Source of the DNA: Candidatus Methylomirabilota bacterium
GTDB lineage: Bacteria > Methylomirabilota > Methylomirabilia > Rokubacteriales > CSP1-6
Length of the DNA: 64,000 nt
Direction: 5' to 3'
Assembly (NCBI GenBank): GCA_035764725.1
Contig: DASTYT010000130.1
Span: 364-64,363 of the forward strand
The notes beneath the pieces were generated by a model. That model was not told the DNA's origin. It made no database searches and was given only the letters and a program-made list of their open reading frames with translations. Positions 11,377 through 61,791 of this stretch are shown here, in pieces; the first letter of the stretch is position 1, and each line of letters opens with the position of its first letter. Both the position numbers and the translations under genes were made by a program.

Positions 11377-11448
11377 GACGGACCGATCCTACCGCACCGC
11401 GCCCCGGCGCGGGCGCCAGTGTATGCTCGTCCCGAGGGAGGGCTCCCG

Positions 11449-12327: not shown

Positions 12328-12367
12328 TGGGCGGGCGCTGGAGTATGATCCCGCCAGGGAGGAACCC

Positions 12368-33409: not shown

Positions 33410-33443
33410 GCGCGCTGAGTCCGGGCGCCGCGAGCGGGGCGCC

Positions 33444-40275: not shown

Positions 40276-41340
40276 ATGCGGGCGACGGCCGAGACACTGC
40301 GCCGGCTCACCAGCGCGATGCTGCGCGCCGGCGGCAGCGGCGGCGAGGAAGCGGAGCTGGTGGCGGATCATCTCGTGCAGGCCAATCTCGCCGGGCACGA
40401 CAGCCACGGGGTCGGCATGATGCCGACCTACGTCCGCAACCTCAAGGCCGGTCTGGTCGTCCCGAACACGCGGGCCAAGGTCGTGAAGGACGACGGGCCC
40501 ATCGTCATGCTGGATGGAGGACGCGGCTACGGGCGATGCGTGGGCGGGGAGCTGATGACCGCCGCCATCGCCCGGTGCCGTCAGACGGGCGTCGCGGTGG
40601 GGACGCTCGCCAACGCGCATCACGTGGGACGGGTCGGCGCCTACGGCGAGCTCGCCGTCGGCGCCGGCCTCGTCTCGCTGCACTTCGTCAACGTCAGTGA
40701 CCACCGCGCCCTCGTGGCCCCGTTCCGGGGCAGCGACGGGCGCTTCTCGACCAATCCCATCTGCATCGCCCTCCCCGCCACCGAGCGGCAGCCCCCAGTG
40801 CTCCTCGACATGGCGACCAGCGAGATCGCGATGGGGAAGGTACGCGTCGCGAAGAACGAGGGAAAGCTCGTCGCCGAGGGCGCCCTCATCGACGCCGCCG
40901 GCCGCCCCACCCGCGACCCTAACGTCATGTACGGGGAGCCGTCGGGATCGCTCCGCCCCTTCGGCGAGCACAAGGGCTATGCGCTCGCCGTCGTCACCGA
41001 GCTCCTCGCCACCGCGCTCACCGGCGGGCCCAGTATCCAGCCCGACAACGCGCGGCTGGGCGGCATCGTCAACAACATGCTCTGCGTGCTTCTCGATCCG
41101 GCGCGCCTCGCGGGCCTCGAGTGGTTCCGCCGCGAGCTCGACGGCTTCGTGAGCTACGTGAAGGCGTCCCCGCCCGCGGCCGCCGCCGCCGTGCTCGTGC
41201 CCGGCGATCCCGAGCGCCAAGCCCGGGCCGAGCGCGGCCGCGACGGGATTGACGTCGACGCGACGACGTGGGAGGAGATCCTTGCCGCGGGCGAGGCGGT
41301 GGGCCTGCCCCGCGCGCAGGCCGAGGCGCTCGTCGCCTGA
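40276..41340 (+). CDS. Ldh_2-family (malate/L-lactate/ureidoglycolate dehydrogenase type 2) oxidoreductase
   Basis: ..ANLAGHDSHGV.., ..NAHHVGRVG.., ..STNPICIA..MATSEIAMGKV.., ..FGEHKGYALA.. motifs. Confidence 0.85.
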   Translation: MRATAETLRRLTSAMLRAGGSGGEEAELVADHLVQANLAGHDSHGVGMMPTYVRNLKAGLVVPNTRAKVVKDDGPIVMLDGGRGYGRCVGGELMTAAIARCRQTGVAVGTLANAHHVGRVGAYGELAVGAGLVSLHFVNVSDHRALVAPFRGSDGRFSTNPICIALPATERQPPVLLDMATSEIAMGKVRVAKNEGKLVAEGALIDAAGRPTRDPNVMYGEPSGSLRPFGEHKGYALAVVTELLATALTGGPSIQPDNARLGGIVNNMLCVLLDPARLAGLEWFRRELDGFVSYVKASPPAAAAAVLVPGDPERQARAERGRDGIDVDATTWEEILAAGEAVGLPRAQAEALVA

Positions 41341-41341
41341 G

Positions 41342-42568
41342 GTGAGCGCCCCGCCCCGCCCGGCCGACGAGCTGCCCCTCACCGGCTACACCGTCCTCGA
41401 CCTCACGCGCGTGCTCGCCGGGCCTTACTGCACGCGCATCCTCGCCGACATGGGCGCGCGGGTCATCAAGATCGAGCGGCCGGTCGAGGGCGACGACATG
41501 CGGCGCAACTACATGCAGCTCGAGCCCGGGCGCACCGACCAGTCGAGCTACTTCACGCGCGTCAACGCCGGGAAGGAGAGCGTGGCCGTGGACATGGCCA
41601 AGCCCGAGGGCCGGGCGGTGATCCACGACCTCGCGCGGCGCGCCGATGTCTTCGTGGAGAACTTCATGCCGGGCGTGTCGGCCAAGCTCGGCTGCGACGA
41701 GCCGACGCTGCGCGCGCTCCGGCCCGACCTCGTGTACTGCTCGATCTCCGGCTTCGGCCAGACCGGACCGTGGCGCGCGCGCCCGGCCTTCGCCCACATC
41801 ATCAACGCCGCCTCGGGCCTCATGCACCTCGAGCAGGGCGACGAGCCAGCGCCCCGCGCCTCGAACCTCCAGGCGGCTGACGTGCTCGCCGGCACCCACG
41901 CGGTCGGCGCCATCGTGGGCGCGCTGCTCCGTCGCGGCCGCACCGGTCGGGGCGCCCACCTCGACGTCTCGATGCTGGAGGCGCTGATCAGCGCCGACAG
42001 CGTCACCTACGCGGCCGTGCTCAACGGGGGCGAGGAGGCGGGCAATCCACGGCCGGGCATGGTGGTGGCGCCCATCGGCGCGCGCTGCCTCGCCATGCAG
42101 TTCGTGGGGTCGGGCGAGCTCTGGCCGCGGCTGCTCGCGCTCATGGGGCGCCCCGAGCTGGGCAAGGATCCGCGCTTCGACACGGCGGACCAGCGCCGCG
42201 CCAACTGGCGGGTACTCCGCGAGATCGTGGTGACCTGGCTGCAAGCGACCTACCCGAGCGTGGAGGCGGCCCTGGCCGCGCTGGCGGATGCGCGCATTCC
42301 TTGCGCGCCGGTGCTCCGGCCCGCCGACCTCGTGGCGGAGCCGCACCTGGCCGAGCGGGGCTTCTTCCCCTCCGTCCCGCATCCCGCCCGCGGATCCGTG
42401 CGCATCACCTCGACCCCCTACCATCTCGATCATCGGCCCATGGAGCCGCGCGGGGGGGCCGCGTACCGCGTGGGCGAGCACACCCGTGACGTGCTGGTGC
42501 GCGACCTCGGCTATAGCGCCGCGCGCATCGAGGCGCTGCGGCAGGCGCGCATCGTCGACATTCCCTGA
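41342..42568 (+). CDS. family III CoA-transferase (CaiB/BaiF type)
   Basis: GTG at 41342. LTGYTVLDLTRVLAGPYCTRILADMGARVIKIE, ..VENFMPG.. motifs. Confidence 0.85.
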   Translation: MSAPPRPADELPLTGYTVLDLTRVLAGPYCTRILADMGARVIKIERPVEGDDMRRNYMQLEPGRTDQSSYFTRVNAGKESVAVDMAKPEGRAVIHDLARRADVFVENFMPGVSAKLGCDEPTLRALRPDLVYCSISGFGQTGPWRARPAFAHIINAASGLMHLEQGDEPAPRASNLQAADVLAGTHAVGAIVGALLRRGRTGRGAHLDVSMLEALISADSVTYAAVLNGGEEAGNPRPGMVVAPIGARCLAMQFVGSGELWPRLLALMGRPELGKDPRFDTADQRRANWRVLREIVVTWLQATYPSVEAALAALADARIPCAPVLRPADLVAEPHLAERGFFPSVPHPARGSVRITSTPYHLDHRPMEPRGGAAYRVGEHTRDVLVRDLGYSAARIEALRQARIVDIP

Positions 42569-42596
42569 TTCCTCCCCGACATTTCCCCGTCATTTC

Positions 42597-42616
42597 CCGC
42601 GCCCAAAGCGCGGTTT
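42597..42616 (+). terminator. short GC hairpin followed by TTT after the CoA-transferase gene
   Basis: ccgcgc-ccaaa-gcgcgg (6-bp perfect stem, 42597-42613) followed by ttt. It separates the upstream operon from the 42670 operon. The structure is short, so confidence is low. Confidence 0.35.
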
Positions 42617-42669
42617 AACTCGACCTATGGGATAGACTGAGCGGGCGGAGGTTCCTGTCCGCAGACCCC

Positions 42670-43416
42670 ATGGGAGGCCACGTGGACAAGCAGGCGGACG
42701 GCACGATGTTGGCCGCCGACCTGCGCACCCTCGCCGAGGCCGATGCGCGCCGCACTCCCATGGATGCGCTGCTCGAGGCGGCGGGCCGGGGCGAGTGGGA
42801 CGACGACCGCGGCTTCCGGCTGCTCGGCCGGCTCTGGACGCTCAAGCGCGCGATGTACTACGTCTACGGGGCCTGGGCGATGGGCCTCAACGTCAACGAG
42901 TTCCCGCCCGCGGTGGCCTACCTCTTCGGCAAGCAAATCTACGACGACTCCACGCACGAGATGCAGTACGTGGACGAGATCCTGCGCCGCGGCTGGGCGC
43001 CCACCCAGCGCGTCGCGTTCGCCCATCCCTACTGCGCCTTTGTCCCCGCCACGCGGCTCGCCTACTTCGTCTTCGCCCTCCGCGCGCTCACGAACTACCG
43101 GCAGAACATCCGCATCGCCGCCTTCAACCTCGGCGCCAAGGTGATCGAGCTCACCTGGCTCGAGCGGCTCGGCCGCGACTGGCCGGATCCCACCCTGCGC
43201 GCGCTCTTCGCCGGCCAGGTCGCGGAGACGCGCAGTCACGTGCTGATGGGCCGCTTGATCGTCGAGCGCTGTGTGGGGAGCGCGGTGGACGAGGGGCTCG
43301 CCCGCATCGATCACGGCGTGGTGCGCCAGAACTATCTCTTCGCCCTCGACGAGATCGCCGCCGTCACCCTGGGCCTGGCCGAGGTCAAGGGTGAAGTCTC
43401 GGTGCCCAAGGACTAG
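42670..43416 (+). CDS. ferritin-like four-helix-bundle protein with a degenerate diiron site (putative non-catalytic partner subunit)
   Basis: 248 aa, predicted all-helical. Only partial carboxylate/His motifs are present: D93-x2-H96 (YDDSTHEMQY) and E186-x3-H190 (VAETRSHV). N153 and a non-acidic residue near position 60 sit where the bridging Glu would be expected. It is the first gene of a translationally coupled operon. The family assignment is inference. Confidence 0.5.
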   Translation: MGGHVDKQADGTMLAADLRTLAEADARRTPMDALLEAAGRGEWDDDRGFRLLGRLWTLKRAMYYVYGAWAMGLNVNEFPPAVAYLFGKQIYDDSTHEMQYVDEILRRGWAPTQRVAFAHPYCAFVPATRLAYFVFALRALTNYRQNIRIAAFNLGAKVIELTWLERLGRDWPDPTLRALFAGQVAETRSHVLMGRLIVERCVGSAVDEGLARIDHGVVRQNYLFALDEIAAVTLGLAEVKGEVSVPKD

Positions 43417-43419
43417 GGC

Positions 43420-43710
43420 GTGCCCCCCGCGAGCATCCCCATCCGGGTCGACCACGAGGCGTGCACCGAGTGCCGCATGTGCTACGTGGTTTGCCGCGAG
43501 ATCGACCTGAACGCGGTGTACGTGGCGCCCGAGCCGCGCCATCGTTTCGAGATCGACCCCGCCCGCTGCCTCTACCCCGGCTGCACCGCGTGCCTCATGT
43601 ACTGTCCCGCACCCGGCTCCATCGTGGAAGCGGCGAGCGGACGCTCGCTGGTGCCCCCGCCGCCCGACGTGTGGACGTCCGACCGGCGCGTGCCGCGGGG
43701 GATCGCGTGA
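43420..43710 (+). CDS. 2x[4Fe-4S]-type ferredoxin (atypical spacing)
   Basis: 96 aa, GTG start 4 nt after the upstream stop. C15-x2-C18-x2-C21-x3-C25 and C50-x4-C55-x2-C58-x3-C62-P. It is paralogous to the 44471 ferredoxin (shared ..HRFE(I/V).. linker). Confidence 0.75.
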   Translation: MPPASIPIRVDHEACTECRMCYVVCREIDLNAVYVAPEPRHRFEIDPARCLYPGCTACLMYCPAPGSIVEAASGRSLVPPPPDVWTSDRRVPRGIA

Positions 43711-44474
43711 TGCCGCGGCCCAATCACCCGCTCGTGCAGCAGTTCATGGACGCGTGGGTCACGCCCACCGGCTTCGCCGGTCCCGGCGTCGAGTTCCGCA
43801 TGCGGATGACCGCGCGCTGCCTGCCGATCTGGAACGGCGCGACGGCGCGGGCGGTGAAGGGCGGCGAGGCCGACCGCCACCTGACTGGCGACGACTGGAA
43901 GATGGAGCGCGCGCTCGCCGGTTACGCGCTGGAAGGGCCGCAGATGTCCATCAAGCAGATGTCCACCCAGCTCCTCTCCGTGCCCATGGATCAGCAGGCG
44001 CGCTACATCGATCTCCAGCGCATGCGCGCGCGCCAGATCTGGGACGAGGTCAAGCACGGCCAGCTCAACGCCGACGTGCTCCTCCGCGGCGGCCGCATCA
44101 AGAGGGAAGACGAGCTGATGGCGAGCGTGGAGGCCAACGCGCAGGACAACCTCGCCTACTTCGGCCTCACCTCCATGTTCGCGCATCTCCATCCCCTCGC
44201 CCGCGCCGCCCAGAACTACTTCGTGGAGGCCATCGCCTGCCTCGGCATCACCGCCACGCTCGCGGCCGTCGACGATCCGCTCATCCGCCACCAGATGAAG
44301 AGCCAGCAGGCGGAGGAGCTCATGCACTTCATGGAGGGCAAGTACCAGCTCGACGCCTACTGCCTCACCGCCGAGGAGCAGCGCCCGGTGGAGGAGGCCT
44401 TCGACTTCCTCCTCAAGCCCTGGGCCACCACCATGAACCCGGCCTTCGGGGCGCGGCGCGAGGGCGGCGCGTGA
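43710..44474 (+). CDS. ferritin-like diiron-carboxylate protein (putative oxygenase catalytic subunit)
   Basis: 254 aa. Its ATG overlaps the upstream TGA. There are two ExxH motifs 90 residues apart: E113-V-K-H116 (44046-44057) and E203-L-M-H206 (44316-44327). E173 lies 30 residues before the second motif. E75 is a possible first ligand. This is the E..ExxH x2 layout of small ferritin-like oxygenases (PaaA, AurF/CmlI, MiaE, ADO). Confidence 0.6.
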   Translation: MPRPNHPLVQQFMDAWVTPTGFAGPGVEFRMRMTARCLPIWNGATARAVKGGEADRHLTGDDWKMERALAGYALEGPQMSIKQMSTQLLSVPMDQQARYIDLQRMRARQIWDEVKHGQLNADVLLRGGRIKREDELMASVEANAQDNLAYFGLTSMFAHLHPLARAAQNYFVEAIACLGITATLAAVDDPLIRHQMKSQQAEELMHFMEGKYQLDAYCLTAEEQRPVEEAFDFLLKPWATTMNPAFGARREGGA

Positions 44475-44674
44475 AGGTCCGCATCGACGACGACCACTGC
44501 ATCGCCTGCGGGCTCTGCCGCGAGGCCTGTCCCGAGGGTGCGGTGCATCCGCGCATGCAGGATATCCACCACCGGTTCGAAGTGTTGTCGCACGAGTGCA
44601 CAGGCTGCGCGGTGTGCCTCCCGTACTGCCCGGTGCCTCCCGCGCTCGTGCAGTACGACATCGCCACCCCCTGA
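44471..44674 (+). CDS. 2x[4Fe-4S] dicluster ferredoxin
   Basis: 67 aa, GTGA overlap with the upstream gene. Canonical CIACGLCREACP and CTGCAVCLPYCP motifs. Confidence 0.85.
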   Translation: MKVRIDDDHCIACGLCREACPEGAVHPRMQDIHHRFEVLSHECTGCAVCLPYCPVPPALVQYDIATP

Positions 44675-44682
44675 GCGGGATC

Positions 44683-47364
44683 ATGGCCGGCGCGTTTTCC
44701 GCCTCCGAGGTCGAGGGATCCGTCCCCGCCCGGTTTGCGCGCGTCGCCGCCGCGCGTGGCGATGCCCTCGCCATCGTGGGTGATGACCGGCGCCTCACGT
44801 ATCGCGAGTTGGACCGGCGCTCGGACGCGGTGGCCAGGGCCATCCTGGGAGCGGGCGGCGCGGACGACCTCCCGATAGCGGTGCACGCCGACGTGCCCGC
44901 CGCGACCATCCTCGCCATGCTCGCCACCTGGAAGGCAGGCCGCTTCTGCGTGCCTCTCGATCCGACCCTGCCGCCGGCGCGACTCGAGGCGATCCTGCGC
45001 GACGCGGAAGCATCGCTCGTCGTCACCGACGGGGCGCCGTCCTTCGACGTCGGCGCGCGGCCCGTGATCCGGCTGGAGGCCCTCGACCTCGATGCCGGGG
45101 TCCCGCCGCTCCGCCCCGAGGTCGGCGCCGACGCGCTCGCGTGCCTTCTCTACACGTCCGGCTCCACCGGCGAGCCCAAGGGCGTCGTGCGCACCCATCG
45201 CAACCTGCTCCACCGCGCGCGCTGCGCGGTGGGTTCCCTCGGCATCGGCCCCGACGATCGCGTGAGCGCGCTGCATTCCCCGGCCTTTGGCGCGGGGCTC
45301 CGCGACGTGCTCGCCGCGCTCCTGGGCGGCGCGACCCTTCTGCCATTCGACGTGCGGCGGGCGGGCATGGCCGCGCTCGCCGAGTGGATCGAGCGCGAGG
45401 CCATCACCGTGCTCTGCGCCGTGGTCACCACGCTCCGCCACTTCCTGGGCAGCCTGGACACCCAGCGACGCTTTCCTTCGATCCGAATCGTTCGCCTGGG
45501 CAGCGAGGCGCTGTTCCGCGAGGACGTTGAGCGGCTCCGGGCGCGCCTCGCCCCCGGCTGTGTGCTGGTGGCGGGCTACGGCGCCAGCGAGGCCAGCGGC
45601 ATCGTCGAATACCGCATCGGTCCCGACACCGCGCTCGCGCCGGGCCGCGTGCCGGCGGGCTATCCGCTCGAGGGCGTGGAGATCCTCATCCTCGGCGAGG
45701 ACGGAGCTCCGCGGGCCGCCGGGGAGAGCGGGGAGATCGCCGTGCGCAGCCGCTATCTCTCGCCGGGCTACTGGCGGCGTCCCGACCGCACGCGCGCCAC
45801 GTTCTCGGGCGATGCGACGGGCAACGCCCCACGCGTCTACCGCACCGGCGACCTCGGGCGGCTCGCCCCCGACGGCTGCCTCGAGCTGATCGGCCGTCTC
45901 GATCACCAGGTGAAAGTCCGCGGTTATCTCGTGCACCCCGACGAGATCGAGCGGCACCTGCTCGAGCACGAGGAGATCCGCCAGGCGGCGGTGGCGGGGC
46001 AAGAGGACGCCTCCGGCAACACGCGGATTGTCGCCTATGTGGTGCCGGCGGGAGACAGCGCGCCCACACCCGCGGCCCTCCGGGCATTCCTCGGCGCGCG
46101 CCTGCCAGAGTACATGATGCCCGCAATGTTCGTACACCTGGCGACCCTACCCGTCACCCCTAGTGGCAAGGTCGATCGCGCCGCCCTGCCTCCCGCGGAG
46201 GCCGCCGGCCGGCCCGGATTCGTCCACCTCCGCAATCCCCTTGAGCATCAGATCGCGAGCATCTGGGAGGCTCTGCTCGGCGTTCGTCCCATCGGCGCGA
46301 CCGATGACTTCTTCGAGCTCGGCGGCAGCTCGCTCCACGCCGCCGCCTTCGTCGCTTCGCTCGAGCGCGTCTGCGGCCGGGTCATCCCACCGTCGGCGCT
46401 GCTGGAGGCGAGCACCGTCGGTGCCCTGGCAGCCGCTCTCCTCGCGAACCGCGCTTGGCTGCGCAAGCCGCTCCTCACTCTGCGCGCGCGGGGGAAGCGG
46501 CTCCCGTTCTTCTACCTTCACGGCGACTACAACGGCGGGGGCCTCTACTGTCACGCCCTCGCGCGTGGCCTGGATCCCGAGCGTCCGTTCTACGTGCTCC
46601 ATCCCCACGGAATCGATGGGCGTGCCGTGCCCTCGACTATCGAGGAGATGGCGGTGGACCGGCTCGCGATTCTCCGCGCCGCCCGGCCCCATGGGCCGTA
46701 TCTGCTGGGCGGCTACTGCAACGGCGCCTTCGTCGCGCTCGAGATGGCGCGGCGGCTTCGCGCCGAGGGCGAGTGGGTCGGAGTCACCATCCTCGTCGAG
46801 TCGCAGGCGCCGACCGGCGCGCAGGTTGCACTCCAGCGCGTCGTGGATCGCGTCGGCACGCTGCGCGGCTTCTCGGACGGGTCGCGCAGGCGGATCGCCG
46901 CGCGCGTCGATCACCTGTCGGACCGGATCACGCGGTGGAGCCAGTACTACGGAGGTCGGGTGCGCGAGCTCCGGGTGTCGTCATGGACCCAGAAGGCCGC
47001 CCTCGCCCGGCGTGCGCTCGCCAGTTGGGCGCGCGGCATCGTGCGACGGCTGGGCCTCGTCCGCGCGTCCGAACGTCCACCAGCCCCGGCGCAGCCAACC
47101 CTCGGCCGCCGCCATGTCTACCGCGCCACGCTGCGGCGCTACGCACCCCCGCCGTTCGACGGGCGCACCGTGTTACTGCGTGCGGAGGGTGAGCCCGCGC
47201 ACCGGCACGATCTCGGCTGGTCGCGCCTGATCCCGAAGGTCGAGGTCGGCGTCATTCCCGGAGAGCACCTGACCTGTATCACCCGACACGTGGACGCATT
47301 CGCCGTGCGCCTCGAGGCGATCCTCAAGACCGCGGACACCGCATCGCAAGGAGAGAAGCCATGA
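44683..47364 (+). CDS. stand-alone NRPS-like synthetase, domain order A-T-TE (no condensation domain)
   Basis: 893 aa from the ATG at 44683. A-domain cores: LYTSGSTGEPKGV (A3), YRTGDLG (A7), GRLDHQVKVRGYLVHPDEIE (A8), PSGKVDRAAL (A10). Carrier motif FFELGGSSL (Ser550, 46330-46332). TE: FFYLHGDYNGGG, GGYCNGAFVALEMA (Cys679, 46717-46719), IPGEHLTCI. The A4 motif reads AFGAG instead of FDxS (Gly203 in place of the Asp235-equivalent). Confidence 0.9.
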   Translation: MAGAFSASEVEGSVPARFARVAAARGDALAIVGDDRRLTYRELDRRSDAVARAILGAGGADDLPIAVHADVPAATILAMLATWKAGRFCVPLDPTLPPARLEAILRDAEASLVVTDGAPSFDVGARPVIRLEALDLDAGVPPLRPEVGADALACLLYTSGSTGEPKGVVRTHRNLLHRARCAVGSLGIGPDDRVSALHSPAFGAGLRDVLAALLGGATLLPFDVRRAGMAALAEWIEREAITVLCAVVTTLRHFLGSLDTQRRFPSIRIVRLGSEALFREDVERLRARLAPGCVLVAGYGASEASGIVEYRIGPDTALAPGRVPAGYPLEGVEILILGEDGAPRAAGESGEIAVRSRYLSPGYWRRPDRTRATFSGDATGNAPRVYRTGDLGRLAPDGCLELIGRLDHQVKVRGYLVHPDEIERHLLEHEEIRQAAVAGQEDASGNTRIVAYVVPAGDSAPTPAALRAFLGARLPEYMMPAMFVHLATLPVTPSGKVDRAALPPAEAAGRPGFVHLRNPLEHQIASIWEALLGVRPIGATDDFFELGGSSLHAAAFVASLERVCGRVIPPSALLEASTVGALAAALLANRAWLRKPLLTLRARGKRLPFFYLHGDYNGGGLYCHALARGLDPERPFYVLHPHGIDGRAVPSTIEEMAVDRLAILRAARPHGPYLLGGYCNGAFVALEMARRLRAEGEWVGVTILVESQAPTGAQVALQRVVDRVGTLRGFSDGSRRRIAARVDHLSDRITRWSQYYGGRVRELRVSSWTQKAALARRALASWARGIVRRLGLVRASERPPAPAQPTLGRRHVYRATLRRYAPPPFDGRTVLLRAEGEPAHRHDLGWSRLIPKVEVGVIPGEHLTCITRHVDAFAVRLEAILKTADTASQGEKP

Positions 47365-48953
47365 CGTCGTCTATCACGATCGACGGCGGGTCCCTCACCG
47401 TGGAGGCCGTCGAGGCGGTCGCACGCCACGGCGCCCGCGTGGACCTCCACGGCGGCCGCGACGTCAACGATCGCATCGCGCGCTCCTACCTGCTCAATCA
47501 GCAGCTGATGGGGCGCGGCATGCCGATTTACGGCGTGACGACCGGGCTCGGCGACTCCGTCGACCGCCACATCGGCCTCGACCGGGCGGCGCGCCTCCAG
47601 GGCAATCTCATCGCGTACCTCGGCTGCGGCGTGGGCGAGTACATGCCGGTCGAGGAGTGCCGCGCCATGCTGCTGGCCCGCGTGAACTGCCTCGCCAAGG
47701 GCTATTCCGCCGTGCGCCCCGCCTTGATCGATCGCCTGATCGATCTGCTCAACCGCGACGTCATCCCGTGCATCCCGGCCATGGGCTCGGTGGGCGCGAG
47801 CGGCGATCTCATCCCGGCCTCCTACATCGCTGCGGTCGTGATGGGCAAGCGAGATGTCTATCACGGCGGGCGCGTGCGCCCGACCGCGGAGGTCTACGCG
47901 GAAGCCGGGCTCGCGCCGATGACGCTCGAGCCCAAGGAAGGCCTCGCGATGGTCAACGGCACCAACTTCATGACCGCGGTGGGCGCGCTCGCGCTGCAGG
48001 ACGCGCACCGCCTCGCCGTGATCGCGGACGCCTGCACCGCCCTGGCCACCGAGGCCCTCACCGGCATCACGGGGCCCTTCGACCCGTTCCTCCACGACAC
48101 CGCCAAGCCGCATCCCGGGCAGGTCGCCTCCGCCGCGCGCACCCTGCGCCTCCTTCGCGGCAGCCGACTCGCGCGCGACTACACGGAGCTGGTGCACGAG
48201 CTGGGCACGCTGGACAAGGGCTATCGCCGGCTGGAGGCCAAGATCCAGGACAAGTACTCGATCCGCTGCGCCCCGCAGTGCGTGGGGGCCCTCCACGACG
48301 TCGTGACCTGGACGCGGCAGATCCTCTCCATCGAGCTCAACTCGAGCAATGACAACCCGCTCTACGACCTCGAGGCGGGCACGGTGCGGAGCGGCGGCAA
48401 CTTCTCGGGCTTCCACGTCGCTCTCGCGATGGACACGCTGAAGACGGCGGTGGCGAGCGTGGCCGATCTGCTCGACCGGCAGTTCGAGCTGCTGAACGAC
48501 GAGAAGTACAACATGGGGCTGGGGATGTGCTGCACCAACCCGCTCCCCGACGATCATCCCGAGGCGGGCACACATCACGGCTTCAAGGGTATGCAGCTCG
48601 CCATCTCCGCGCTGACCGCGGAGGCCCTCAACGCCTGCACGCCGATGACCGTGTTCAGCCGCTCCACCGCGTGTCACAACCAGGACAAGGTCTCGATGGG
48701 CGCGACGGCGGCGCGGCAGGCGCGGGAGGTGGTGGACCTCACGCAGCGCGTGGCGGCGATCCACCTCCTGATCCTCTGTCAGGCCGCGGATCTCCGCGGG
48801 GCGGACCGCCTCGGCGAGGGCACTCGCCGTGTCTACGAGGCGGTGCGCAAGGTCTCCCCCTTCGTGGACTTCGACCGGGAGCTGCGGCCGGACATCGGGC
48901 GCGTCGTCGAGCTGATGTGCTCGGGCGTCCTGGTCGACGCCATCGAGGCCTAG
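47361..48953 (+). CDS. MIO-dependent aromatic amino acid ammonia-lyase / 2,3-aminomutase (HAL/PAL/TAL/TAM family)
   Basis: 530 aa, ATGA overlap with the synthetase gene. MIO-forming triad in GSVGASGDLIPAS (A146-S147-G148, 47796-47804). YGVTTGLGDS, NSSNDNPL and QDKVSMG family motifs. The substrate-selectivity position reads ..LQGNLIAYLGCGVG.. (Tyr-Leu). Confidence 0.9.
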   Translation: MTSSITIDGGSLTVEAVEAVARHGARVDLHGGRDVNDRIARSYLLNQQLMGRGMPIYGVTTGLGDSVDRHIGLDRAARLQGNLIAYLGCGVGEYMPVEECRAMLLARVNCLAKGYSAVRPALIDRLIDLLNRDVIPCIPAMGSVGASGDLIPASYIAAVVMGKRDVYHGGRVRPTAEVYAEAGLAPMTLEPKEGLAMVNGTNFMTAVGALALQDAHRLAVIADACTALATEALTGITGPFDPFLHDTAKPHPGQVASAARTLRLLRGSRLARDYTELVHELGTLDKGYRRLEAKIQDKYSIRCAPQCVGALHDVVTWTRQILSIELNSSNDNPLYDLEAGTVRSGGNFSGFHVALAMDTLKTAVASVADLLDRQFELLNDEKYNMGLGMCCTNPLPDDHPEAGTHHGFKGMQLAISALTAEALNACTPMTVFSRSTACHNQDKVSMGATAARQAREVVDLTQRVAAIHLLILCQAADLRGADRLGEGTRRVYEAVRKVSPFVDFDRELRPDIGRVVELMCSGVLVDAIEA

Positions 48954-49882
48954 CCGGTCTTCGAATACTTCCCGCTGAGCTGGGGCGTGGTCCCTTCCTC
49001 GCCCTTGTTCTGCCGGTCGAGCCGCGTCTCGCGGGACCACGTGCGCTTGAGATCGTCGCGCACGCCGAAGCGCAGGCGGCCCAGCCCCTCGGTCTCCAGC
49101 TCGATGCGGTCTCCGTCCTGGAAGCCCGAAAGCCCCCGGTGATTGGTGCCGGTGGCGAGGAGGTCGCCGGGCTCCAGGGCGTGAATGGAGGTCACCCACT
49201 CCACGCAGCGCGGGATCGTGTGGGCCATGTCGCTCGTGTTGAAGTTCTGCATGAGCGTGCCGTTGACCCAGAGCCGCACCTGGAGCTTGTGCGGGTCGGC
49301 GATCTCGTCCGCGGTCACGATGTAGGGGCCGATGGGCGCGAAGGTGTCCCGGCTCTTCATCTGGTAGAACGTGTTCCCGGCCGGGGGCAGGCCGCGCGCG
49401 GAGCCGTCGATGAAGTTCACGTAGCCGAACACATGGCGCATGGCGTCCGCCGCGCGCACCTTGGACGCGCGCGCCCCCATCACCAGCGCCACCTCGGCTT
49501 CGCCTTCGAAGATCGTGGCGGGCACGTCGGGCAAGATCATGGTGTCGCCGACCCCGATGATCGCCCCGGGGGATTTCAAGAAGGCGTTGATGGGCGCGGG
49601 CTCGCTGCGCGTGCCGTCCTCCATGTAGTTCACCGCCATGCAGGCGATGGTGCCGGGGCTCGGCAGCGGCGGCCGGAGGCGCACCTGGCCGAGGGGCACG
49701 CCCTTGCCCGCGTCGGCGGCGGCCTGGAGCCGGCCGCGATACTCGTCGAAGCGCGTGATGAGGCCGCGGATCAGGTCCTGGGCCTGAAGGCGCGGGATGT
49801 CGCGCGTGAGGTCGGTCACATCCACCACGATGTCGCCCTTGAGCACGCCCAGCCGCCACTCGTCGAAGAAGAGGATCTTCAC
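48950..49882 (-). CDS. fumarylacetoacetate hydrolase (FAH) family protein
   Basis: ..GEAEVALVMG.., ..FGYVNFIDGSAR.., ..GDLLATGTNHRG.. FAH-fold motifs. It is convergent with the MIO gene and overlaps it by 4 nt. Confidence 0.85.
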   Translation of the reverse strand: MKILFFDEWRLGVLKGDIVVDVTDLTRDIPRLQAQDLIRGLITRFDEYRGRLQAAADAGKGVPLGQVRLRPPLPSPGTIACMAVNYMEDGTRSEPAPINAFLKSPGAIIGVGDTMILPDVPATIFEGEAEVALVMGARASKVRAADAMRHVFGYVNFIDGSARGLPPAGNTFYQMKSRDTFAPIGPYIVTADEIADPHKLQVRLWVNGTLMQNFNTSDMAHTIPRCVEWVTSIHALEPGDLLATGTNHRGLSGFQDGDRIELETEGLGRLRFGVRDDLKRTWSRETRLDRQNKGEEGTTPQLSGKYSKTG

Positions 49883-50848: not shown

Positions 50849-51409
50849 ATGGCCGTGAGCACGACCTACTCCCTCGAGCAGTTCCTCGCCGACACGCGCG
50901 CGACCATCCGGGCCAAGGGTGTCCCCTCCGGCCTCGCCGAGATCCGGGGCCATCTCGAGAAGCTCCTGCACAACCCGGAACTCCTCACGACCCATCTCGG
51001 GAACCCGGTCCCCTACACCGAGCGCGCCACCATCGCCCACGACCCCGAGACCGACATCCACGTGCTCGTGCACGGACGGGAGAAGGCCGGCAAGTCCTCG
51101 GTACACGACCACGGGCCGTGCTGGGTGATCTACGGGAACTACCGGAACCCCACGCGCATGCGCCGGTGGCGCCGGCTGGACGACGGTAGCCGGCCCGGCC
51201 ACGCGCGGGTGGAGCTCCAGCGGGAGTTCCTCAACGAGCCCGGGCACGCCGCGGTGTTCGCGGTGGGCGACATCCACTCCATCGAGTTCGGCGACGACAC
51301 CATCTTCATCCGCGTCACCGGCGGCGACGTCGAGACCAAGGAGACCCTGCGCTTCGACCCCGACAAGCAGACCGTCGAGGTCGCGAACCGCGCGCTCGGG
51401 CAGCGCTAG
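50849..51409 (+). CDS. cupin-fold protein, cysteine-dioxygenase-type-I-like
   Basis: ATG at 50849 follows AAGGAG. ..KSSVHDHGPCWVIYG.. and ..GDIHSIE.. are cupin metal motifs. Confidence 0.6.
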   Translation: MAVSTTYSLEQFLADTRATIRAKGVPSGLAEIRGHLEKLLHNPELLTTHLGNPVPYTERATIAHDPETDIHVLVHGREKAGKSSVHDHGPCWVIYGNYRNPTRMRRWRRLDDGSRPGHARVELQREFLNEPGHAAVFAVGDIHSIEFGDDTIFIRVTGGDVETKETLRFDPDKQTVEVANRALGQR

Positions 51410-51767: not shown

Positions 51768-53303
51768 CTATTTCCTGAGGCGCACCTCTTCGAGGGGCGC
51801 CGACCACGGGTACGGGTTGATCAGCATCAGCGCGGGCTCGGCCACCCGCGTGCTCATGGCGCTGGGCCAGATGTACTCGTAGATCGGCGCGAAACGCACG
51901 CGCTCGGCCAGCTCGCGCTGGATCCGGTGGAGCAGCGCCTCGCGCTTCTTCCGGTCGGTCTCGCGCGCCTGCTGGGCGTAGAGGGCCTCGATGTCCGGCC
52001 ACGCCCCGTAGGTATACGACCCCTCCGCCGGCACCGTCTCGGAGAGCCGCGACGCCGCGTTCCCGTAGACCGCGTTGATGCACACGCACACCCCCTTGAG
52101 CTTCTTGGAGGCGAGCGCGGTGTAGAAGGCGGCCCGCTCCATGGTGCGCACGCGGGTCTTGATGCCGATCGCGGCGAGGTAGTTGGTCACCGTCTCCCCG
52201 AGGGAGGTGTAGGGGGGCCAGGGATAGAGGTCGCCCGCGTCGAAGCCGTTCGGGTAGCCGGCCTCGGCAAGGAGCTGCTTGGCCCGCTGGACGTTGTAGG
52301 GCGGCGCCTCAAGGGGCAGGGCGAAGTCGAAGCCCTTGGGCACCACATTGCCGGTGGGGGTGGAGGCGCCCACCGTCTCCACGTCGCTGAGCCCGCGGCG
52401 GTCGATGGCGAGGCTGGCGGCCTGCCGGACGCGCTTGTCGGCCCAGGGCGACTTCGGGTCCCACATGTCGAAGAAGTCGAGGTAGACGGTCCCGATGCCG
52501 CCGGAGAAGACCAGCTTCAGATTGGGGTCGCGCTTCACCTCGTCGGCCACGGGCGTGTCGATGAGATAGGCGAGGTCGACCTCGCCCCGCTTCAACATCG
52601 CCATGCGCGTGGTCGCGTCGGGCACACTCTTGTAGACGAGGCGCTTTACCGCCGGCATCTTCCGCCAGTAGCCCTCGTAGGCCTCCATCACCAGATCGAC
52701 GCCCGGCGTGAAGCTCACGAACTTGTAGGGCCCGAGCCCGACCGGCGCTTTCTTGAAGCCGTCCGGCCCCACCTGCTCCATGTACTTCTTCGGCACCACC
52801 CAGCCGGCGCCGGAGGCGAACGTGCCGTAGAACGTCATGAAGTCGGGCCAGGGCTCCACGAGCACGAAGCGGATCCGGTGGGGATCCACGATCACCACGT
52901 CCTTGACCTTCTCATGGAGCAGCTTGCCCTTGGCCCGGTGGAAGGAGAACTTCACGTCCTCCGCGGTGAAGGGATCGCCATTGTGGAACTTCACGCCCTG
53001 GCGGAGCTTGAACTCGTAGGTCTTCTGGTCCCCGCTCACCGTCCACGATTCGGCCAGGCTCGGGGCGAACTGATTGCCCGGCATGGGCTTCACGAGCGCG
53101 TCGTGGAGCGCATAGAGGATCCAGAAGGGCGTGATCACGCCCACCACCTCGCCGGGGTCGAACCACATCGGCGACACGTTCACGTAGAGCGCCCAGCGCA
53201 TCTCGCCCTCCGGCTTGCCCTGCGCGCCCGCCCCCGCCGGCCAGCCCGCGAGGCCGACCGCGAGCGCGGCGGCGAGCGCGACCGCCCGCGCCGCGCGCCT
53301 CAT
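51768..53303 (-). CDS. family-5 ABC substrate-binding protein, orphan
   Basis: ATG at 53303 (MRRAARAVALAAALAVGLAG..). ..KFHNGDPFTAEDVKFSF.., GLGPYKFVSF.. SBP_bac_5 motifs. 4-nt overlap with the upstream TauD gene. Confidence 0.85.
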   Translation of the reverse strand: MRRAARAVALAAALAVGLAGWPAGAGAQGKPEGEMRWALYVNVSPMWFDPGEVVGVITPFWILYALHDALVKPMPGNQFAPSLAESWTVSGDQKTYEFKLRQGVKFHNGDPFTAEDVKFSFHRAKGKLLHEKVKDVVIVDPHRIRFVLVEPWPDFMTFYGTFASGAGWVVPKKYMEQVGPDGFKKAPVGLGPYKFVSFTPGVDLVMEAYEGYWRKMPAVKRLVYKSVPDATTRMAMLKRGEVDLAYLIDTPVADEVKRDPNLKLVFSGGIGTVYLDFFDMWDPKSPWADKRVRQAASLAIDRRGLSDVETVGASTPTGNVVPKGFDFALPLEAPPYNVQRAKQLLAEAGYPNGFDAGDLYPWPPYTSLGETVTNYLAAIGIKTRVRTMERAAFYTALASKKLKGVCVCINAVYGNAASRLSETVPAEGSYTYGAWPDIEALYAQQARETDRKKREALLHRIQRELAERVRFAPIYEYIWPSAMSTRVAEPALMLINPYPWSAPLEEVRLRK

Positions 53304-54361
53304 ACCTGGTCGATCCCGCCGCGCAGCGCGCCGGCCTCGATGCGGCCCCACAGCACCTCGAAGCCGGGCGGCAACGCCCGGCTGTTCGGCATCGAGAGCC
53401 AGAGCCGATAGAGCAGACGGTCCTGGCGCGAGGCCGGGTCGTCCTCATAGGCGGTGCGGGCGTGATAGGTCACGTGGCTGTTGAGGAGCTGTAGATCGCC
53501 GGGGATCAGCGTCATCTCGTAGCAGAGCTCCTCGGCCAGCTCGGCCAGGAGGTCGAGCGCCTCGTCCTGCGCGGCGGTGAGCTTCGGGACGCCGGGCAGC
53601 CGCTGCGCGGCCTCGACGAACGTGCGCGAGTACTGGCTGGTGAAGCGCCCGTCGCGGATGCCCCAGACGGGCAGCGCGTAGGTGCGGCGCTCGCCGCCCG
53701 CCTCCTCGCCCTCGCGGCTGCGGTGATAGTCCTGGAGCAGCAGGGCGACGAGCTCGGGTCGCCGGGCCAGCATCGCGTCGTGGATCGCCACCGAGCTGAC
53801 CACCTTGCTCTTGCCGCCCGTCCGGGCCTGGCGCACGCAGAGCAGCGCCACCACGTCGGTGCGATCCGTGTGGAAGCGCAGCGGACCAGACGACCGCGCC
53901 TTATATCTTGAAGTGGGCGGCGCGTCCGCGGTGCGCCCCGGCATGGCCGGCTGGGCGACGTTTCCGTACACGCGCAGCTCGTCGCGCACCTCGCCGATCA
54001 GCTCGCCACGCGAGTTCTGGTACCGCGCGCTGCCCAGATGCGCGCCGAGTCCGAAGTAGAGCGCGCGCAGCCCCTCTTCGTCGTAGCGCTCGACCGGGAG
54101 GCCGCGGAGCAGCGCCACGCCCCGGCCGTCCTCCAGCTCGCGCTGCACCGCCGCGAGCATGCGGCCGAAGCCCGGCAGCGGGAAGTCGCCACGGGTGATG
54201 TCGCGCCAAACGAGGCCGCGGCGCCTGACGCCCTCGACCGCCGCGTGCAGCTCCGCCACCGCCTCGGCGGGGACAGGCCAGATCCAGTCGGTGCTGCGGC
54301 TCAGCTCTTCGCCCTTCCAGGCGGCGGGACCGCCGAGGGGCCGCGCGATGGTGATGGCCAT
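53300..54361 (-). CDS. TauD/TfdA (clavaminate-synthase-like) Fe(II)/2OG dioxygenase
   Basis: ATG at 54361. ..LRFHTDRTD (HxD).., ..GDLQLLNSHVTYHART.. motifs. Confidence 0.8.
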   Translation of the reverse strand: MAITIARPLGGPAAWKGEELSRSTDWIWPVPAEAVAELHAAVEGVRRRGLVWRDITRGDFPLPGFGRMLAAVQRELEDGRGVALLRGLPVERYDEEGLRALYFGLGAHLGSARYQNSRGELIGEVRDELRVYGNVAQPAMPGRTADAPPTSRYKARSSGPLRFHTDRTDVVALLCVRQARTGGKSKVVSSVAIHDAMLARRPELVALLLQDYHRSREGEEAGGERRTYALPVWGIRDGRFTSQYSRTFVEAAQRLPGVPKLTAAQDEALDLLAELAEELCYEMTLIPGDLQLLNSHVTYHARTAYEDDPASRQDRLLYRLWLSMPNSRALPPGFEVLWGRIEAGALRGGIDQV

Positions 54362-54809: not shown

Positions 54810-56012
54810 GTGACCGACTCTCGTCCTGCTCCGGGTGTGCTCGCGGGCGTGCGCGTCCTCGACTTCGGCCGTTACATCGCGGGGCCCTACTGTGCGGCGC
54901 TGCTCGCCGACCTGGGCGCCGATGTCATCCGCATCGAGCGTCTCGACGGCGGCGAGGACCGCTGGGTGGCGCCGGTGGGCGAGGACGGCGTAGGCGCGAT
55001 GTACGTGGTGATGAATCGGAACAAGCGCGGCATGACGCTCGATCCCAGCTCACCCGAGGGTCGGCAGATCGTGCAGCGGCTGGTCGCCACCGCGGACGTC
55101 GTGGTCGCGAACCTCCCGCCCGAGGTGCTGCGCTCCCTGGCCCTGGACCTCGAGAGCCTGCGTCGCGTGAAGCCCGACATCATCCTCACCACCGTCACCG
55201 CCTTCGGCGCGGGCGGGCCCTGGAGCCACCGCCACGGCTTCGACGGCATCGGCCAGGTCATGTGCGGCTCGGCCTATCTGACCGGCACGCCCGAGCAGCC
55301 GTACCGCGCCGCGGTGGCGTGGGTGGATTGCGGCACCGCCTCCCTCGCCGCCTTCGGGACGCTGGCCGCGCTCATGGAGCGTCAGAAGACGGGGCACGGC
55401 CAGAAAGTGGAGGGTGCGCTCCTGCGCACGGCGGTCGCCTTCAACAATCCCACTCTGGTCGAGCAAGGGGTGGTGCGCCCGAATCGCATCGCCACCGTGA
55501 ACCGGGGGCAGACCTCGGCGCCCTCCGATCTCTTCCGCACCAAGGACGGGTGGATCATCGCTTACGCCATCGGCAACCCGATGTTCACGCGGTGGGCGCG
55601 CCTCATGGGCGAGGAGCACTGGCTCACCGATCCGCGCTTCGCGGACGACCTCGCGCGCGGGGACCACGGCGAGATCATCTCCAAGCGCATGAACGAGTGG
55701 ACGGGCGAGCGCACCACCGCGGAAGCGCTGGCCGATCTCGAGGCCGCGAAGATTCCCGCGGGCCCGCTCTACTCCCCGCAGCAGGCGCTCGAGGACGCGC
55801 ATATCCGCGCCGCCGGCCTCCTCGCCGACACGGAATACCCCGGGCTGCCGCGCCCCGCGCCACTGGCGCCGATGCCCGTCGATCTCTCGAAGACGCCCGG
55901 CCGCTTCCGCCACCGCGCGCCCACCCTCGGCGAGCACACCGATGTCATCCTCGGCGAGCTGGGCTACAACGCCGAGGCCATCGCGGGCTTCCGCGAGAGA
56001 AAGGTGATCTGA
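54810..56012 (+). CDS. family III CoA-transferase (CaiB/BaiF type)
   Basis: GTG at 54810 follows AAGGAG. LAGVRVLDFGRYIAGPYCAALLADLGADVIRIE. Confidence 0.85.
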   Translation: MTDSRPAPGVLAGVRVLDFGRYIAGPYCAALLADLGADVIRIERLDGGEDRWVAPVGEDGVGAMYVVMNRNKRGMTLDPSSPEGRQIVQRLVATADVVVANLPPEVLRSLALDLESLRRVKPDIILTTVTAFGAGGPWSHRHGFDGIGQVMCGSAYLTGTPEQPYRAAVAWVDCGTASLAAFGTLAALMERQKTGHGQKVEGALLRTAVAFNNPTLVEQGVVRPNRIATVNRGQTSAPSDLFRTKDGWIIAYAIGNPMFTRWARLMGEEHWLTDPRFADDLARGDHGEIISKRMNEWTGERTTAEALADLEAAKIPAGPLYSPQQALEDAHIRAAGLLADTEYPGLPRPAPLAPMPVDLSKTPGRFRHRAPTLGEHTDVILGELGYNAEAIAGFRERKVI

Positions 56013-61376: not shown

Positions 61377-61410
61377 TGACGCGGGCGCTTCCCCGAGAGA
61401 GGAGAACGAC

Positions 61411-61791
61411 ATGCCGCTGACCGTCCGAGTGAGCCGTGACGCCGCCGCCACCGTGCGCGTCCAGCCCTCCGGCAGCCTGGACAGCGCGACCGCGGGCATC
61501 CTCGAGCGCGAGCTCGCTCCGATTCTCGGGAGCGCGGCGAAGGTGCTCGTCCTCGACTTCACCGAGGTCACCTTCGTGTCCAGCGCGGGCATCCGCGTCG
61601 TCCTCGCCGCGCGCAAGCAGCTGGCCGACCGCGGCGGCTCGCTGCTCATGGCGAATCTCCAGCCGCCGGTGGCCAAGGCCTTCGAGATCGTCCGGGCCAT
61701 CCCCGACGTGACCATCTTCAAGAGCGTCGCGGAGCTCGACGCCTACCTCGCGGCCATGCAGCGCAAGGCGGGCGGCGGCCCCCCGCGCTAG
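61411..61791 (+). CDS. STAS-domain anti-sigma-factor antagonist
   Basis: ..LVLDFTEVTFVSSAGIRVVL.. carries the conserved phosphorylatable Ser. 126 aa. Confidence 0.85.
   Translation: MPLTVRVSRDAAATVRVQPSGSLDSATAGILERELAPILGSAAKVLVLDFTEVTFVSSAGIRVVLAARKQLADRGGSLLMANLQPPVAKAFEIVRAIPDVTIFKSVAELDAYLAAMQRKAGGGPPR

Follow-up and report, generated by a model that had tools for sequence, protein, structure and literature searches.

What does an operon do that sets two small helical proteins outside any annotated family, each followed by its own ferredoxin, directly ahead of a carrier-protein enzyme and an enzyme acting on aromatic amino acids? Six + strand genes at 42670-48953, here called g1 to g6 in order, raise this question in a 64,000-nt stretch of DNA from a Candidatus Methylomirabilota bacterium (contig DASTYT010000130.1, positions 364 to 64,363; the whole stretch is called the window below). 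The fifth gene encodes an enzyme built of adenylation, thiolation and thioesterase domains (A-T-TE), similar to the nonribosomal peptide synthetases (NRPS), and the sixth an enzyme of the 4-methylideneimidazol-5-one (MIO) type. A preliminary description of this DNA had taken the six genes for a single aromatic-acid pathway with its own oxygenase. What is conserved as a unit, we find, is the set of four genes g1-g2-g3-g4, here called the cassette, and not the six-gene block. What is new here is predicted to be a di-metal oxygenase cassette drawn from an undescribed protein family and equipped with dedicated 2x[4Fe-4S] ferredoxins. Tentatively, and stopping just short of calling it probable, we read the operon as composite, with a ferredoxin-driven, diiron-type aromatic hydroxylase cassette recruited to a carrier enzyme and an MIO lyase. 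The features on which the argument turns are as follows.

42569-42669, + strand: spacer of 101 nt, 5' of g1, with a GC hairpin and a nearly invariant core
42670-43416, + strand: g1, 248 aa, all-helical paralogue of g3 and predicted partner subunit
43420-43710, + strand: g2, 96 aa, 8-Cys ferredoxin cognate to g1
43710-44474, + strand: g3, 254 aa, all-helical, predicted catalytic di-metal subunit
44471-44674, + strand: g4, 67 aa, canonical 2x[4Fe-4S] ferredoxin cognate to g3
44683-47364, + strand: g5, 893 aa, NRPS-like A-T-TE enzyme
47361-48953, + strand: g6, 530 aa, MIO enzyme

The six genes form a coupled operon

The six same-strand genes and all of their junctions were present as first described, and the junctions, together with the repetition of the gene order in related loci, indicate a real coupled operon. 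A gap of 3 nt separates g1 from g2, g2 and g3 overlap by 1 nt in a TGATG at 43710, g3 and g4 overlap by 4 nt in a GTGA at 44471, g5 begins at 44683 after an 8-nt gap, and g5 and g6 overlap in an ATGA at 47361. The 101-nt spacer with its hairpin precedes the operon and a convergent gene closes it, both as reported; the latter is an FAH-family gene on the - strand (48950-49882) that overlaps the g6 stop codon. The chosen start codons match the N-termini of homologues in the family alignments of g3 (A1) and g1 (A2) and agree with independent gene calls in the syntenic contig L004 (L numbers denote loci, P numbers proteins). The G+C content of the window is 69-75%, and the translations and third-position GC of g1-g6 (0.86-0.95) are as expected of real genes. 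Pfam, NCBIfam and motif searches likewise recovered the domain content first described, namely the ferredoxins, the A-T-TE enzyme and the enzyme with the ASG triad of the MIO group.

The four-gene cassette is conserved across uncultured phyla

A scan of one genome per GTDB species returned 140 loci, and our descriptions cover the best 80 of these, all of which come from metagenome-assembled genomes (MAGs). The hosts among these 80 are Binatia, 'delta' bins, Methylomirabilota/Rokubacteria, Dormibacterota and Dehalococcoidia/Chloroflexota, joined by Stellaceae, other Alphaproteobacteria and some Gammaproteobacteria. We mapped the window proteins onto the 72 loci with enough flanking sequence: g1-g2-g3-g4 was complete in 69 of them and colinear in 68, and the median identity to the window, across several phyla, was 52% for g1, 70% for g2, 60% for g3 and 58% for g4. 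The predicted oxygenase is not dedicated to this one pathway: about 70 other loci, counted by species, have the cassette with neither an A-T-TE nor a MIO gene, and in most of them ring-cleavage and hydrolase genes lie beside it. A tblastn search of g3 against 72,556 plasmids gave no match.

Some Alphaproteobacteria MAGs hold two cassette copies on different contigs (L044/L052 in CAVOWQ01 and L053/L059 in CAVOWP01). Duplication of this kind is frequent in catabolic oxygenases that have diversified in substrate.

The paralogues g1 and g3 share a diiron-type motif, complete in g3 and degenerate in g1

Neither helical protein matched Pfam (E <= 0.1) or NCBIfam, and searches against PDB sequences, with the single sequences and with the A1 and A2 profiles, gave chance matches only. 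A 5.8-billion-protein collection held 322 homologues of g3 and 465 of g1; these come from metagenomes and MAGs, all named ones are called 'hypothetical', and they carry no Pfam domains except Fer4 in ferredoxin fusions. An exhaustive HMMER search of 1.84 billion representative proteins with the g3 profile yielded 114 matches, mostly fragments, and the full-length g3 orthologues among these representatives all fall in one 50%-identity cluster.

The two proteins are paralogues of each other (BLASTP E 0.002; hhalign probability 87%, E 4e-6). In the g3 family E75, E113xxH116, E173 and E203xxH206 are invariant, as are H159, H161, H194 and E202. The AlphaFold2 (AF2) model of g3 (pLDDT 83.8, pTM 0.84) places the motif residues on consecutive predicted helix pairs, 62-87/93-126 and 165-186/190-217, with a 38-residue connector between the pairs. 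This layout, E...ExxH...E...ExxH, is that of diiron-carboxylate proteins, and the alignment and predicted helices together give six putative ligands in the arrangement of the ferritin-like diiron-carboxylate superfamily. The motif of g1 (AF2 pLDDT 86) is partly degenerate, and its family alignment displays E77; D92, D93, H96 and E97; E160; and E186xxxH190. Aligned with g3, it retains E77, D/E93xxH96, E186 and H190; K157 falls opposite E173 of g3 and T187 opposite E203, and two of the six ligand positions are lost. Both family alignments and the paralogue alignment therefore bear out the proposal of one full motif, with two ExxH, and one degenerate diiron motif. From these sequences we predict a heteromer, with g3 as the catalytic di-metal subunit and g1 in a structural or auxiliary role.

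Among more distant relatives, about ten of full length (240-284 aa, 18-26% identical and free of Pfam matches) keep a core of E...[DE]ExxH...D...E...[DE]ExxH. The profile built from them (A4) matches ferritin-like diiron proteins only, and does so weakly; the ExxH motifs are where it meets ribonucleotide reductase (RNR) R2 (E 0.02) and MmoX (E 0.6). One of these relatives, P0342, gives faint matches to COQ7, RNR and rubrerythrin at E ~0.02.

Each helical protein is paired with a dicluster ferredoxin

The cysteines of g2 lie at C15, 18, 21 and 25 and at C50, 55, 58 and 62, in a first motif CxxCxxCxxxC and a second CxxxxCxxCxxxCP, followed by a Pro-rich C-terminal tail; its Pfam matches are Fer4_6, Fer4_21 and Fer4_2. 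In g4 the motif CxxCxxCxxxCP occurs twice, and the protein matches Fer4_21 at 7.5e-13 along with other Fer4 families. With eight Cys and a Fer4 profile match apiece, g2 and g4 are both 2x[4Fe-4S] dicluster ferredoxins, and the eight Cys are kept by the g2-like genes of 70 of the 72 loci and by the g4-like genes of 64. Because natural fusions join g1 to g2 (P0161) and g3 to g4 (P0072, P0103), each helical protein is tied to a ferredoxin of its own.

The cassette resembles known diiron hydroxylases without joining their families

Structure searches with Foldseek, run on single-chain AF2 models of g1 and g3 with the best 50 matches listed per model, returned nothing at E <= 1e-3 for either protein. 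The best matches of g3, all non-significant, were TenA (E 0.019), MiaE (E 0.09), HrmI, CADD, AetD, aldehyde-deformylating oxygenase (E 0.5) and PqqC, with MiaE and aldehyde-deformylating oxygenase mixed among heme-oxygenase-like proteins. Those of g1, also non-significant, were TenA (E 0.006; TM 0.6/0.69), BesC, AetD, PqqC, CADD, PolF, UndA and heme oxygenase. The leading matches TenA, BesC, AetD, CADD, PolF and UndA, at TM 0.4-0.69 and E 0.006 or worse, would suggest a heme-oxygenase-like seven-helix fold, and the fold of g1 and g3 may be either of this kind or ferritin-like. A search of the g3 model against viral structures was uninformative.

The preliminary description had compared the pair with PaaA and PaaC, which belong to the phenylacetyl-CoA 1,2-epoxidase PaaABCE (E. 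coli b1388 and b1390). The two systems are alike in combining a catalytic diiron subunit, predicted in the case of g3, with a degenerate paralogous partner and in subunit size (about 250-310 aa), and the substrate that PaaAC oxygenates is an aromatic thioester. They are unlike in that homology to g1 or g3 is not detectable. Neither protein matched PF05138, comparison of the profiles A1, A2 and A4 with the E. coli proteins by hhalign gave probabilities of 0.2-1.2%, and no PaaA or PaaC stood among the best 50 Foldseek matches of either model, so the proposed kinship was not upheld. Equivalents of PaaB, PaaD and PaaE are absent from the cassette, the window flanks and the related loci examined. 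Whereas the Paa system receives its electrons from a [2Fe-2S]-flavin reductase, the cassette has two small 2x[4Fe-4S] ferredoxins.

The bacterial multicomponent diiron monooxygenases (phenol hydroxylases, HpdABCDE) are ring hydroxylases of paralogous alpha and beta subunits encoded beside ring-cleavage genes. However, their alpha subunits are of about 500 aa and match Pfam Phenol_Hydrox, and the components they work with, a Rieske or [2Fe-2S] ferredoxin, a coupling protein and a flavin reductase, are all absent here. Judged by its sequences, the system resembles a two-subunit diiron hydroxylase such as PaaAC or the multicomponent alpha/beta enzymes, yet it falls outside both families.

Single proteins offer a third comparison. 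MiaE, a tRNA hydroxylase, and the cyanobacterial aldehyde-deformylating oxygenase resemble g3 in being helical, in consisting of one domain of about 200-250 aa and in having the layout E...ExxH...E...ExxH. The latter is ferredoxin-dependent, as is predicted of the cassette, and MiaE, one of the top g3 Foldseek matches, has the highest identity listed (18-22%). The matches to both are nevertheless non-significant (E 0.09 or worse, rmsd 8-10 A) and come with no Pfam match, and neither enzyme is heteromeric or has a dedicated or fused ferredoxin.

The best overall structural matches were UndA, BesC, AetD, CADD, HrmI and PolF together with the TenA/PqqC fold (TM up to 0.55-0.69 for TenA), and this result could be taken to mean that g1 and g3 are heme-oxygenase-like di-metal oxidases of the UndA, BesC, AetD and SznF kind. 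Such enzymes would carry out non-hydroxylating chemistry on an aryl-acrylate or its precursor, in the form of oxidative decarboxylation, C-C cleavage, desaturation or N-oxygenation. The closest structural matches, among them BesC, AetD, CADD, PolF, UndA, HrmI and RohS, reach TM 0.45-0.6 and Foldseek probabilities up to 1.0, but every E-value is 0.006 or worse and identities are 10-16%. The ligand arrangement differs as well. Heme-oxygenase-like di-metal oxidases typically take E/H from helix 1, E from helix 2 and HxxxDxxH from helix 3, unlike the two E...ExxH repeats on four helices of the g3 family, and inspection of A1 and A2 revealed no HxxxD/ExxH motif, the conserved pattern being two ExxH. 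The weak sequence signals described above all lead to ferritin-like proteins. TenA and PqqC bind no metal, no protein of this whole group is known to have a ferredoxin partner, and we know of no dedicated ferredoxin for any of the characterised di-metal oxidases. We consider this assignment quite unlikely.

Neighbouring genes point to aerobic ring cleavage

In Alphaproteobacteria a LigB-superfamily extradiol dioxygenase gene lies directly upstream of the cassette and an Amidohydro_2 gene directly downstream, and opposite-strand, housekeeping-type genes stand further upstream, leaving a compact six-gene island. The Binatia cassettes follow a gene for a BNR beta-propeller protein; downstream of them come an alpha/beta-hydrolase resembling the meta-cleavage-product hydrolases HsaD and BphD, DUF3500 and an isochorismatase-family hydrolase, and also NMT1-type binding proteins, a glutathione S-transferase, DUF218 and a LigXa-like Rieske oxygenase. 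The Dehalococcoidia cassettes are flanked by Rieske oxygenases and by a MarR gene in divergent orientation.

The superfamily has a third, distant branch, the P0302 type (249-255 aa), in which one helical protein and a small Fer4 ferredoxin make up a single pair. Three examples lie on Binatia-type contigs:

L085, 7687-8750: single pair of ferredoxin and helical protein
L153, 6718-7750: single pair of ferredoxin and helical protein
L154, 6713-7768: single pair of ferredoxin and helical protein

In all three the pair is directly upstream of genes for a NicX-family 2,5-dihydroxypyridine dioxygenase, an isochorismatase, an alpha/beta-hydrolase and a molybdenum hydroxylase. Genes such as these make up a lower pathway of the nicotinate type; the settings in L086 and L152 are similar. 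The pair occupies the place expected of the ring hydroxylase and may be its replacement in a nicotinate- or pyridone-type pathway. The context is of the same kind as that of the 2-hydroxypyridine 5-monooxygenase HpdABCDE, which produces 2,5-dihydroxypyridine, the NicX-type substrate. The settings of the cassette and of the single pair therefore point to hydroxylation of an aromatic or heteroaromatic ring ahead of its cleavage.

Two more specific connections were considered and dropped. No cassette locus had NicX beside g1-g4, and the link to this enzyme is limited to the distant single-pair branch. An identity of the cassette with PicB, the 'four-component 6-hydroxypicolinate monooxygenase', was ruled out, as the published work shows PicB to be a Rieske oxygenase system.

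The neighbourhoods also bear on whether the cassette activates O2 at all. It could instead be a ferredoxin-dependent reductive or other non-oxygenase system, for dehydroxylation or ring reduction, or else a metal-free enzyme of the TenA/PqqC kind to which the ferredoxins serve some different end. Ferredoxins of the low-potential 2x[4Fe-4S] type are usually found with reductive enzymes, no gene for an oxygenase reductase lies nearby, and the non-redox TenA thiaminases are among the top Foldseek matches. Against this, di-metal O2 chemistry typically relies on Glu and His residues such as the invariant ones seen here, the neighbours are aerobic ring-cleavage enzymes (LigB-type, NicX, Rieske oxygenases), and the host lineages are mostly aerobic soil bacteria. 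On balance, a cassette without O2 chemistry seems distinctly improbable to us.

g5 and g6 suggest an aryl-acrylate substrate

All Pfam matches of g5, to AMP-binding, AMP-binding_C, PP-binding and Thioesterase, were above cutoffs and make up an A-T-TE module. Its NCBIfam and PDB matches were to generic NRPS modules only, and TIGR01733 scored 311.7 bits, just under its cutoff of 317.4. The carrier Ser lies within GGSSL (aa 547-551). The nucleophile of the TE domain is a Cys, in GYCNG (window 46711-46725, aa 677-681), with a His in PGEHLT (aa 859-864). The motif GxCxG runs across the orthologues, and a Cys nucleophile is common to most of the A-T-TE relatives examined, including the distant ones of L098 (GTCNG) and L101 (GFCNG).

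With GrsA as the reference, Stachelhaus positions 235 and 239 of the A domain are occupied by Gly and Arg (FGAGLRD, aa 202-208), and on the same reference position 235 is G or A and 239 is R in the window and all nine orthologues; the distant A-T-TE of L101 keeps Asp at 235. Because the A domain lacks Asp235, an alpha-amino acid is an unlikely substrate, and g5 probably loads an acid without an alpha-amino group. The earlier suggestion of an acid such as the product of the MIO lyase fits this pattern. The bacterial and fungal NRPS-like A-T-TE enzymes of the RalA, EchA and TdiA/AtrA type have the same architecture and an A domain that activates a non-amino aromatic acid. They differ in using arylpyruvates supplied by an aminotransferase, whereas the neighbour here is an MIO lyase. 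Their specificity code begins V-A and that of g5 G/A-A-R.

On L108, a 206-kb metagenome contig with neither cassette nor MIO gene, the A-T-TE orthologue (9875-12647) appears split into open reading frames (ORFs) of 144 and 724 aa, through a frameshift, a pseudogene or an assembly error.

Lyase_aromatic (PF00221) matched g6 over the whole profile at E 9e-161, and the ASG triad lies at aa 146-148 (GASGDL, aa 145-150), which marks g6 as an MIO lyase or mutase. By sequence, g6 scores best as a tyrosine ammonia-lyase (TAL) of the actinobacterial type, with 555.4 bits for the BagA/FevW TAL model (NF041222), under that model's curated cutoff of 1000. Lower scores came from hutH (444.5 bits), phenylalanine aminomutase (398 bits), tyrosine 2,3-aminomutase (394.5 bits) and phenylalanine ammonia-lyase (PAL; 379 bits), and the best PDB match was SgTAM at 320 bits. 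The selectivity pair of g6 is Y-L (LIAYLGCGVG, aa 85-92; window 47613-47636), aligned with S92-H93 of SgTAM and conserved in all ten orthologous loci. This pair of positions is known to switch substrate selectivity, being F-L in PAL and H-L in TAL.

The six-gene block is confined to one clade but moves as a unit

The arrangement is not due to chance. All six genes stand in the same order in L004, L005, L007, L008, L088 and L092, while L093, L096, L089 and L097 show part of the block. It is in the closest clade alone, with g3 sharing about 77% identity or more with that of the window, that g5 and g6 follow the cassette; these loci are L004-L008 and the metagenome contigs L088, L092, L093 and L096. 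Flanks of the window type have Thioredoxin_9, Ldh_2 and CoA-transferase genes upstream and FAH, Lin0512, VOC and ABM genes downstream. Loci of the Dormibacterota type keep the same gene order at 57-77% identity with flanks that are entirely different, namely a glycosyltransferase (GT2) gene upstream and an NMT1 binding protein and ABC permease downstream. The block is thus kept with two unrelated sets of flanks, but in one subclade only, the wider unit being the cassette. L091 has the cassette and an adjacent A-T-TE gene without a MIO gene, and L090 and L108 have the A-T-TE orthologue alone. The cassette, A-T-TE and MIO parts are separable, yet the block moves as a unit. Around the cassette-free A-T-TE genes of L090, L108, L098 and L101 the neighbours are housekeeping or unrelated genes that give no functional clue.

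L005 (DATJFY010000051.1) is titled Verrucomicrobiia, but it has 71% G+C and is syntenic with Rokubacteria/Methylomirabilota loci. Its proteins are 93-96% identical to those of the window, and the title is probably a binning or labelling error.

This separability might mean that the cassette and the A-T-TE/MIO pair are mere neighbours, two independent units juxtaposed in one lineage and sharing no pathway. The cassette does stand alone in most loci, the A-T-TE gene stands alone in L090 and L108, and L091 joins the two without the MIO gene. The 8-nt gap between g4 and g5, the ATGA overlap of g5 and g6, the persistence of the order at 57-77% identity in Dormibacterota-type loci with wholly different flanks, and the retention of the cassette next to the A-T-TE gene in L091 all argue otherwise, and we hold simple adjacency to be most improbable.

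The opposite view, the preliminary description taken literally, is a dedicated natural-product pathway in which a PaaA/PaaC-like ferritin heterodimer oxygenates the MIO product only as long as the T domain carries it, after which the TE domain releases a specialised metabolite. The translational coupling of all six genes, the conservation of the block in two flank contexts, the pairing of a full with a degenerate site in g3 and g1, and the A domain without Asp235 are in its favour. A precedent is reportedly the C-1027 pathway, where the MIO aminomutase SgcC4, the A domain SgcC1, the carrier SgcC2 and the hydroxylase SgcC tailor a carrier-bound substrate, and PaaAC is likewise said to act on a thioester. 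On this model the beta-tyrosine branch of C-1027 would share with our operon the succession from an MIO enzyme to an adenylation-carrier pair and a tethered ring hydroxylation, and SgTAM is the best PDB match of g6. In contrast to that branch, g6 favours the TAL over the aminomutase model (555 vs 394.5 bits), the A domain here lacks Asp235 and its carrier is fused to a Cys-TE, and a di-metal cassette stands where C-1027 has a flavin enzyme as hydroxylase. Further evidence counts against a dedicated pathway: g1 and g3 are unrelated to PaaA/PaaC, about 70 cassettes do without A-T-TE or MIO genes in catabolic-type neighbourhoods, and the window holds no other NRPS, polyketide synthase (PKS) or tailoring genes, its operon being flanked by substrate-binding proteins, CoA-transferases, dehydrogenases, hydrolases, FAH and VOC proteins. 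We regard the dedicated pathway as unlikely. As had been surmised, a characterised cluster of this composition did not come to light: we found no matching cluster, and our literature search on the cassette, the combination of MIO and A-T-TE enzymes and diiron/ferredoxin enzymes in these phyla returned no relevant paper.

A composite operon for ring hydroxylation

Under the composite reading that we favour, the operon would join two units, the g1-g4 cassette and the lineage-specific g5 and g6. g3 and g1 would form a heteromeric di-metal oxygenase, to which g2 and g4 would pass single electrons from a general cellular reductase; we propose such a source since none of the genes seen next to the cassette encodes a reductase. 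Once reduced, the di-metal site would activate O2 for the hydroxylation of an aromatic or heteroaromatic ring. In the window, g6 would deaminate an aromatic amino acid, most likely of the Tyr type, to an aryl-acrylate, which the A domain of g5 would adenylate and load onto its own T domain. The cassette would then oxidise the ring of either the carrier-bound or the free acid, and the Cys-TE of g5 would release the product. Oxidation on the carrier protein itself, as first proposed, is pure inference.

Several points weigh against this reading. The best-scoring folds were of the TenA/PqqC/heme-oxygenase-like kind and not classical ferritin-like bundles, and TenA is a non-redox hydrolase. To our knowledge, aerobic diiron oxygenases seldom work with low-potential 2x[4Fe-4S] ferredoxins, and the cassette has no reductase gene seen beside it. 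The family has no biochemically characterised member, most cassettes occur without any carrier protein, and the A-domain code depends on the GrsA sequence used as reference. The three parts of the operon are separable, and the functional link between them therefore rests on translational coupling and synteny.

A bolder proposal builds on the same material, and we offer it as possible but doubtful. The genes g1-g4 may represent a new class of ferredoxin-dependent di-metal oxygenases outside the curated families, in which a catalytic subunit and its degenerate paralogue would form a heteromer and would each be served by a separate 2x[4Fe-4S] ferredoxin, a portable ring-hydroxylating module of uncultured soil phyla (Binatia, Methylomirabilota, Dormibacterota, Dehalococcoidia, Stellaceae). 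In the catabolism of the pyridine ring, the sister branch with its single pair would take over from the flavin or multicomponent hydroxylase. In the window the module would have been captured for work with an NRPS-like carrier enzyme, and it would be the first di-metal oxygenase of this kind to act on a carrier-tethered aryl-acrylate.

The spacer and the genomic surroundings

The hairpin CGCGCCCAAAGCGCG and the core ATGGGATAGACTGA of the spacer upstream of g1 are nearly unchanged in an alignment (A5) of the window with L088, L005, L004 and L007. The core has one change, in L005, and the rest of the spacer is indel-rich. A second GC stem lies just 5' of the g1 ribosome-binding site (window 42600-42669, A5). 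The folding energy of the hairpin is ordinary (z = -0.82), a promoter and terminator consensus scan of the spacer found neither a consensus promoter nor a consensus terminator, and Rfam and tRNA scans found nothing, the spacer matching no Rfam family. The spacer possibly comprises the end of the upstream unit and the promoter and 5' untranslated region of the operon, and perhaps a terminator too.

No other NRPS, PKS or tailoring genes were seen in the window, and the genomic setting of the operon has the look of a catabolic region more than that of a natural-product cluster. At least two family III CoA-transferases are encoded in the window, together with several solute-binding proteins (two SBP_bac_5, one ABC_sub_bind), in the regions 41249-42568, 54840-56012, 31787-34412 and 51768-53351. 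Dehydrogenases, hydrolases and a TauD-family dioxygenase are interspersed among them, and the whole resembles a mosaic of catabolic modules.

Three further features were seen downstream of the operon:

50849-51409, + strand: conserved 186-aa protein encoded between VOC and ABM, without a match in Pfam or NCBIfam, 79-95% identical in L004 and L007
49879-50862, - strand: long ORF, an apparent shadow of the + strand Lin0512 and VOC genes
59061-61791: 771-aa protein with Hpt, receiver, SpoIIE/PP2C phosphatase and HATPase_c_2 (anti-sigma kinase-like) domains, followed by a STAS-domain protein

The 771-aa protein and the STAS protein look like a partner-switching regulatory module.

What the cassette would mean for aromatic turnover in soil

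All full-length g3 orthologues fall in one 50%-identity cluster, and yet the family spans several phyla, which suggests strong constraint together with horizontal spread of the complete module. For annotation, the cassette would be of value in the form of four new family models, and the enzymes may possibly be of use in biocatalysis. The window itself amounts to a natural experiment, in which the cassette has been coupled to a Cys-TE A-T-TE enzyme and a lyase with an unusual Y-L pair, and its candidate substrates are thereby defined. If the cassette is indeed a ferredoxin-driven di-metal ring hydroxylase, it would constitute a new enzyme family in the turnover of aromatic and N-heteroaromatic carbon in soil, carried by abundant, still uncultured phyla in which every member is at present annotated as 'hypothetical'.

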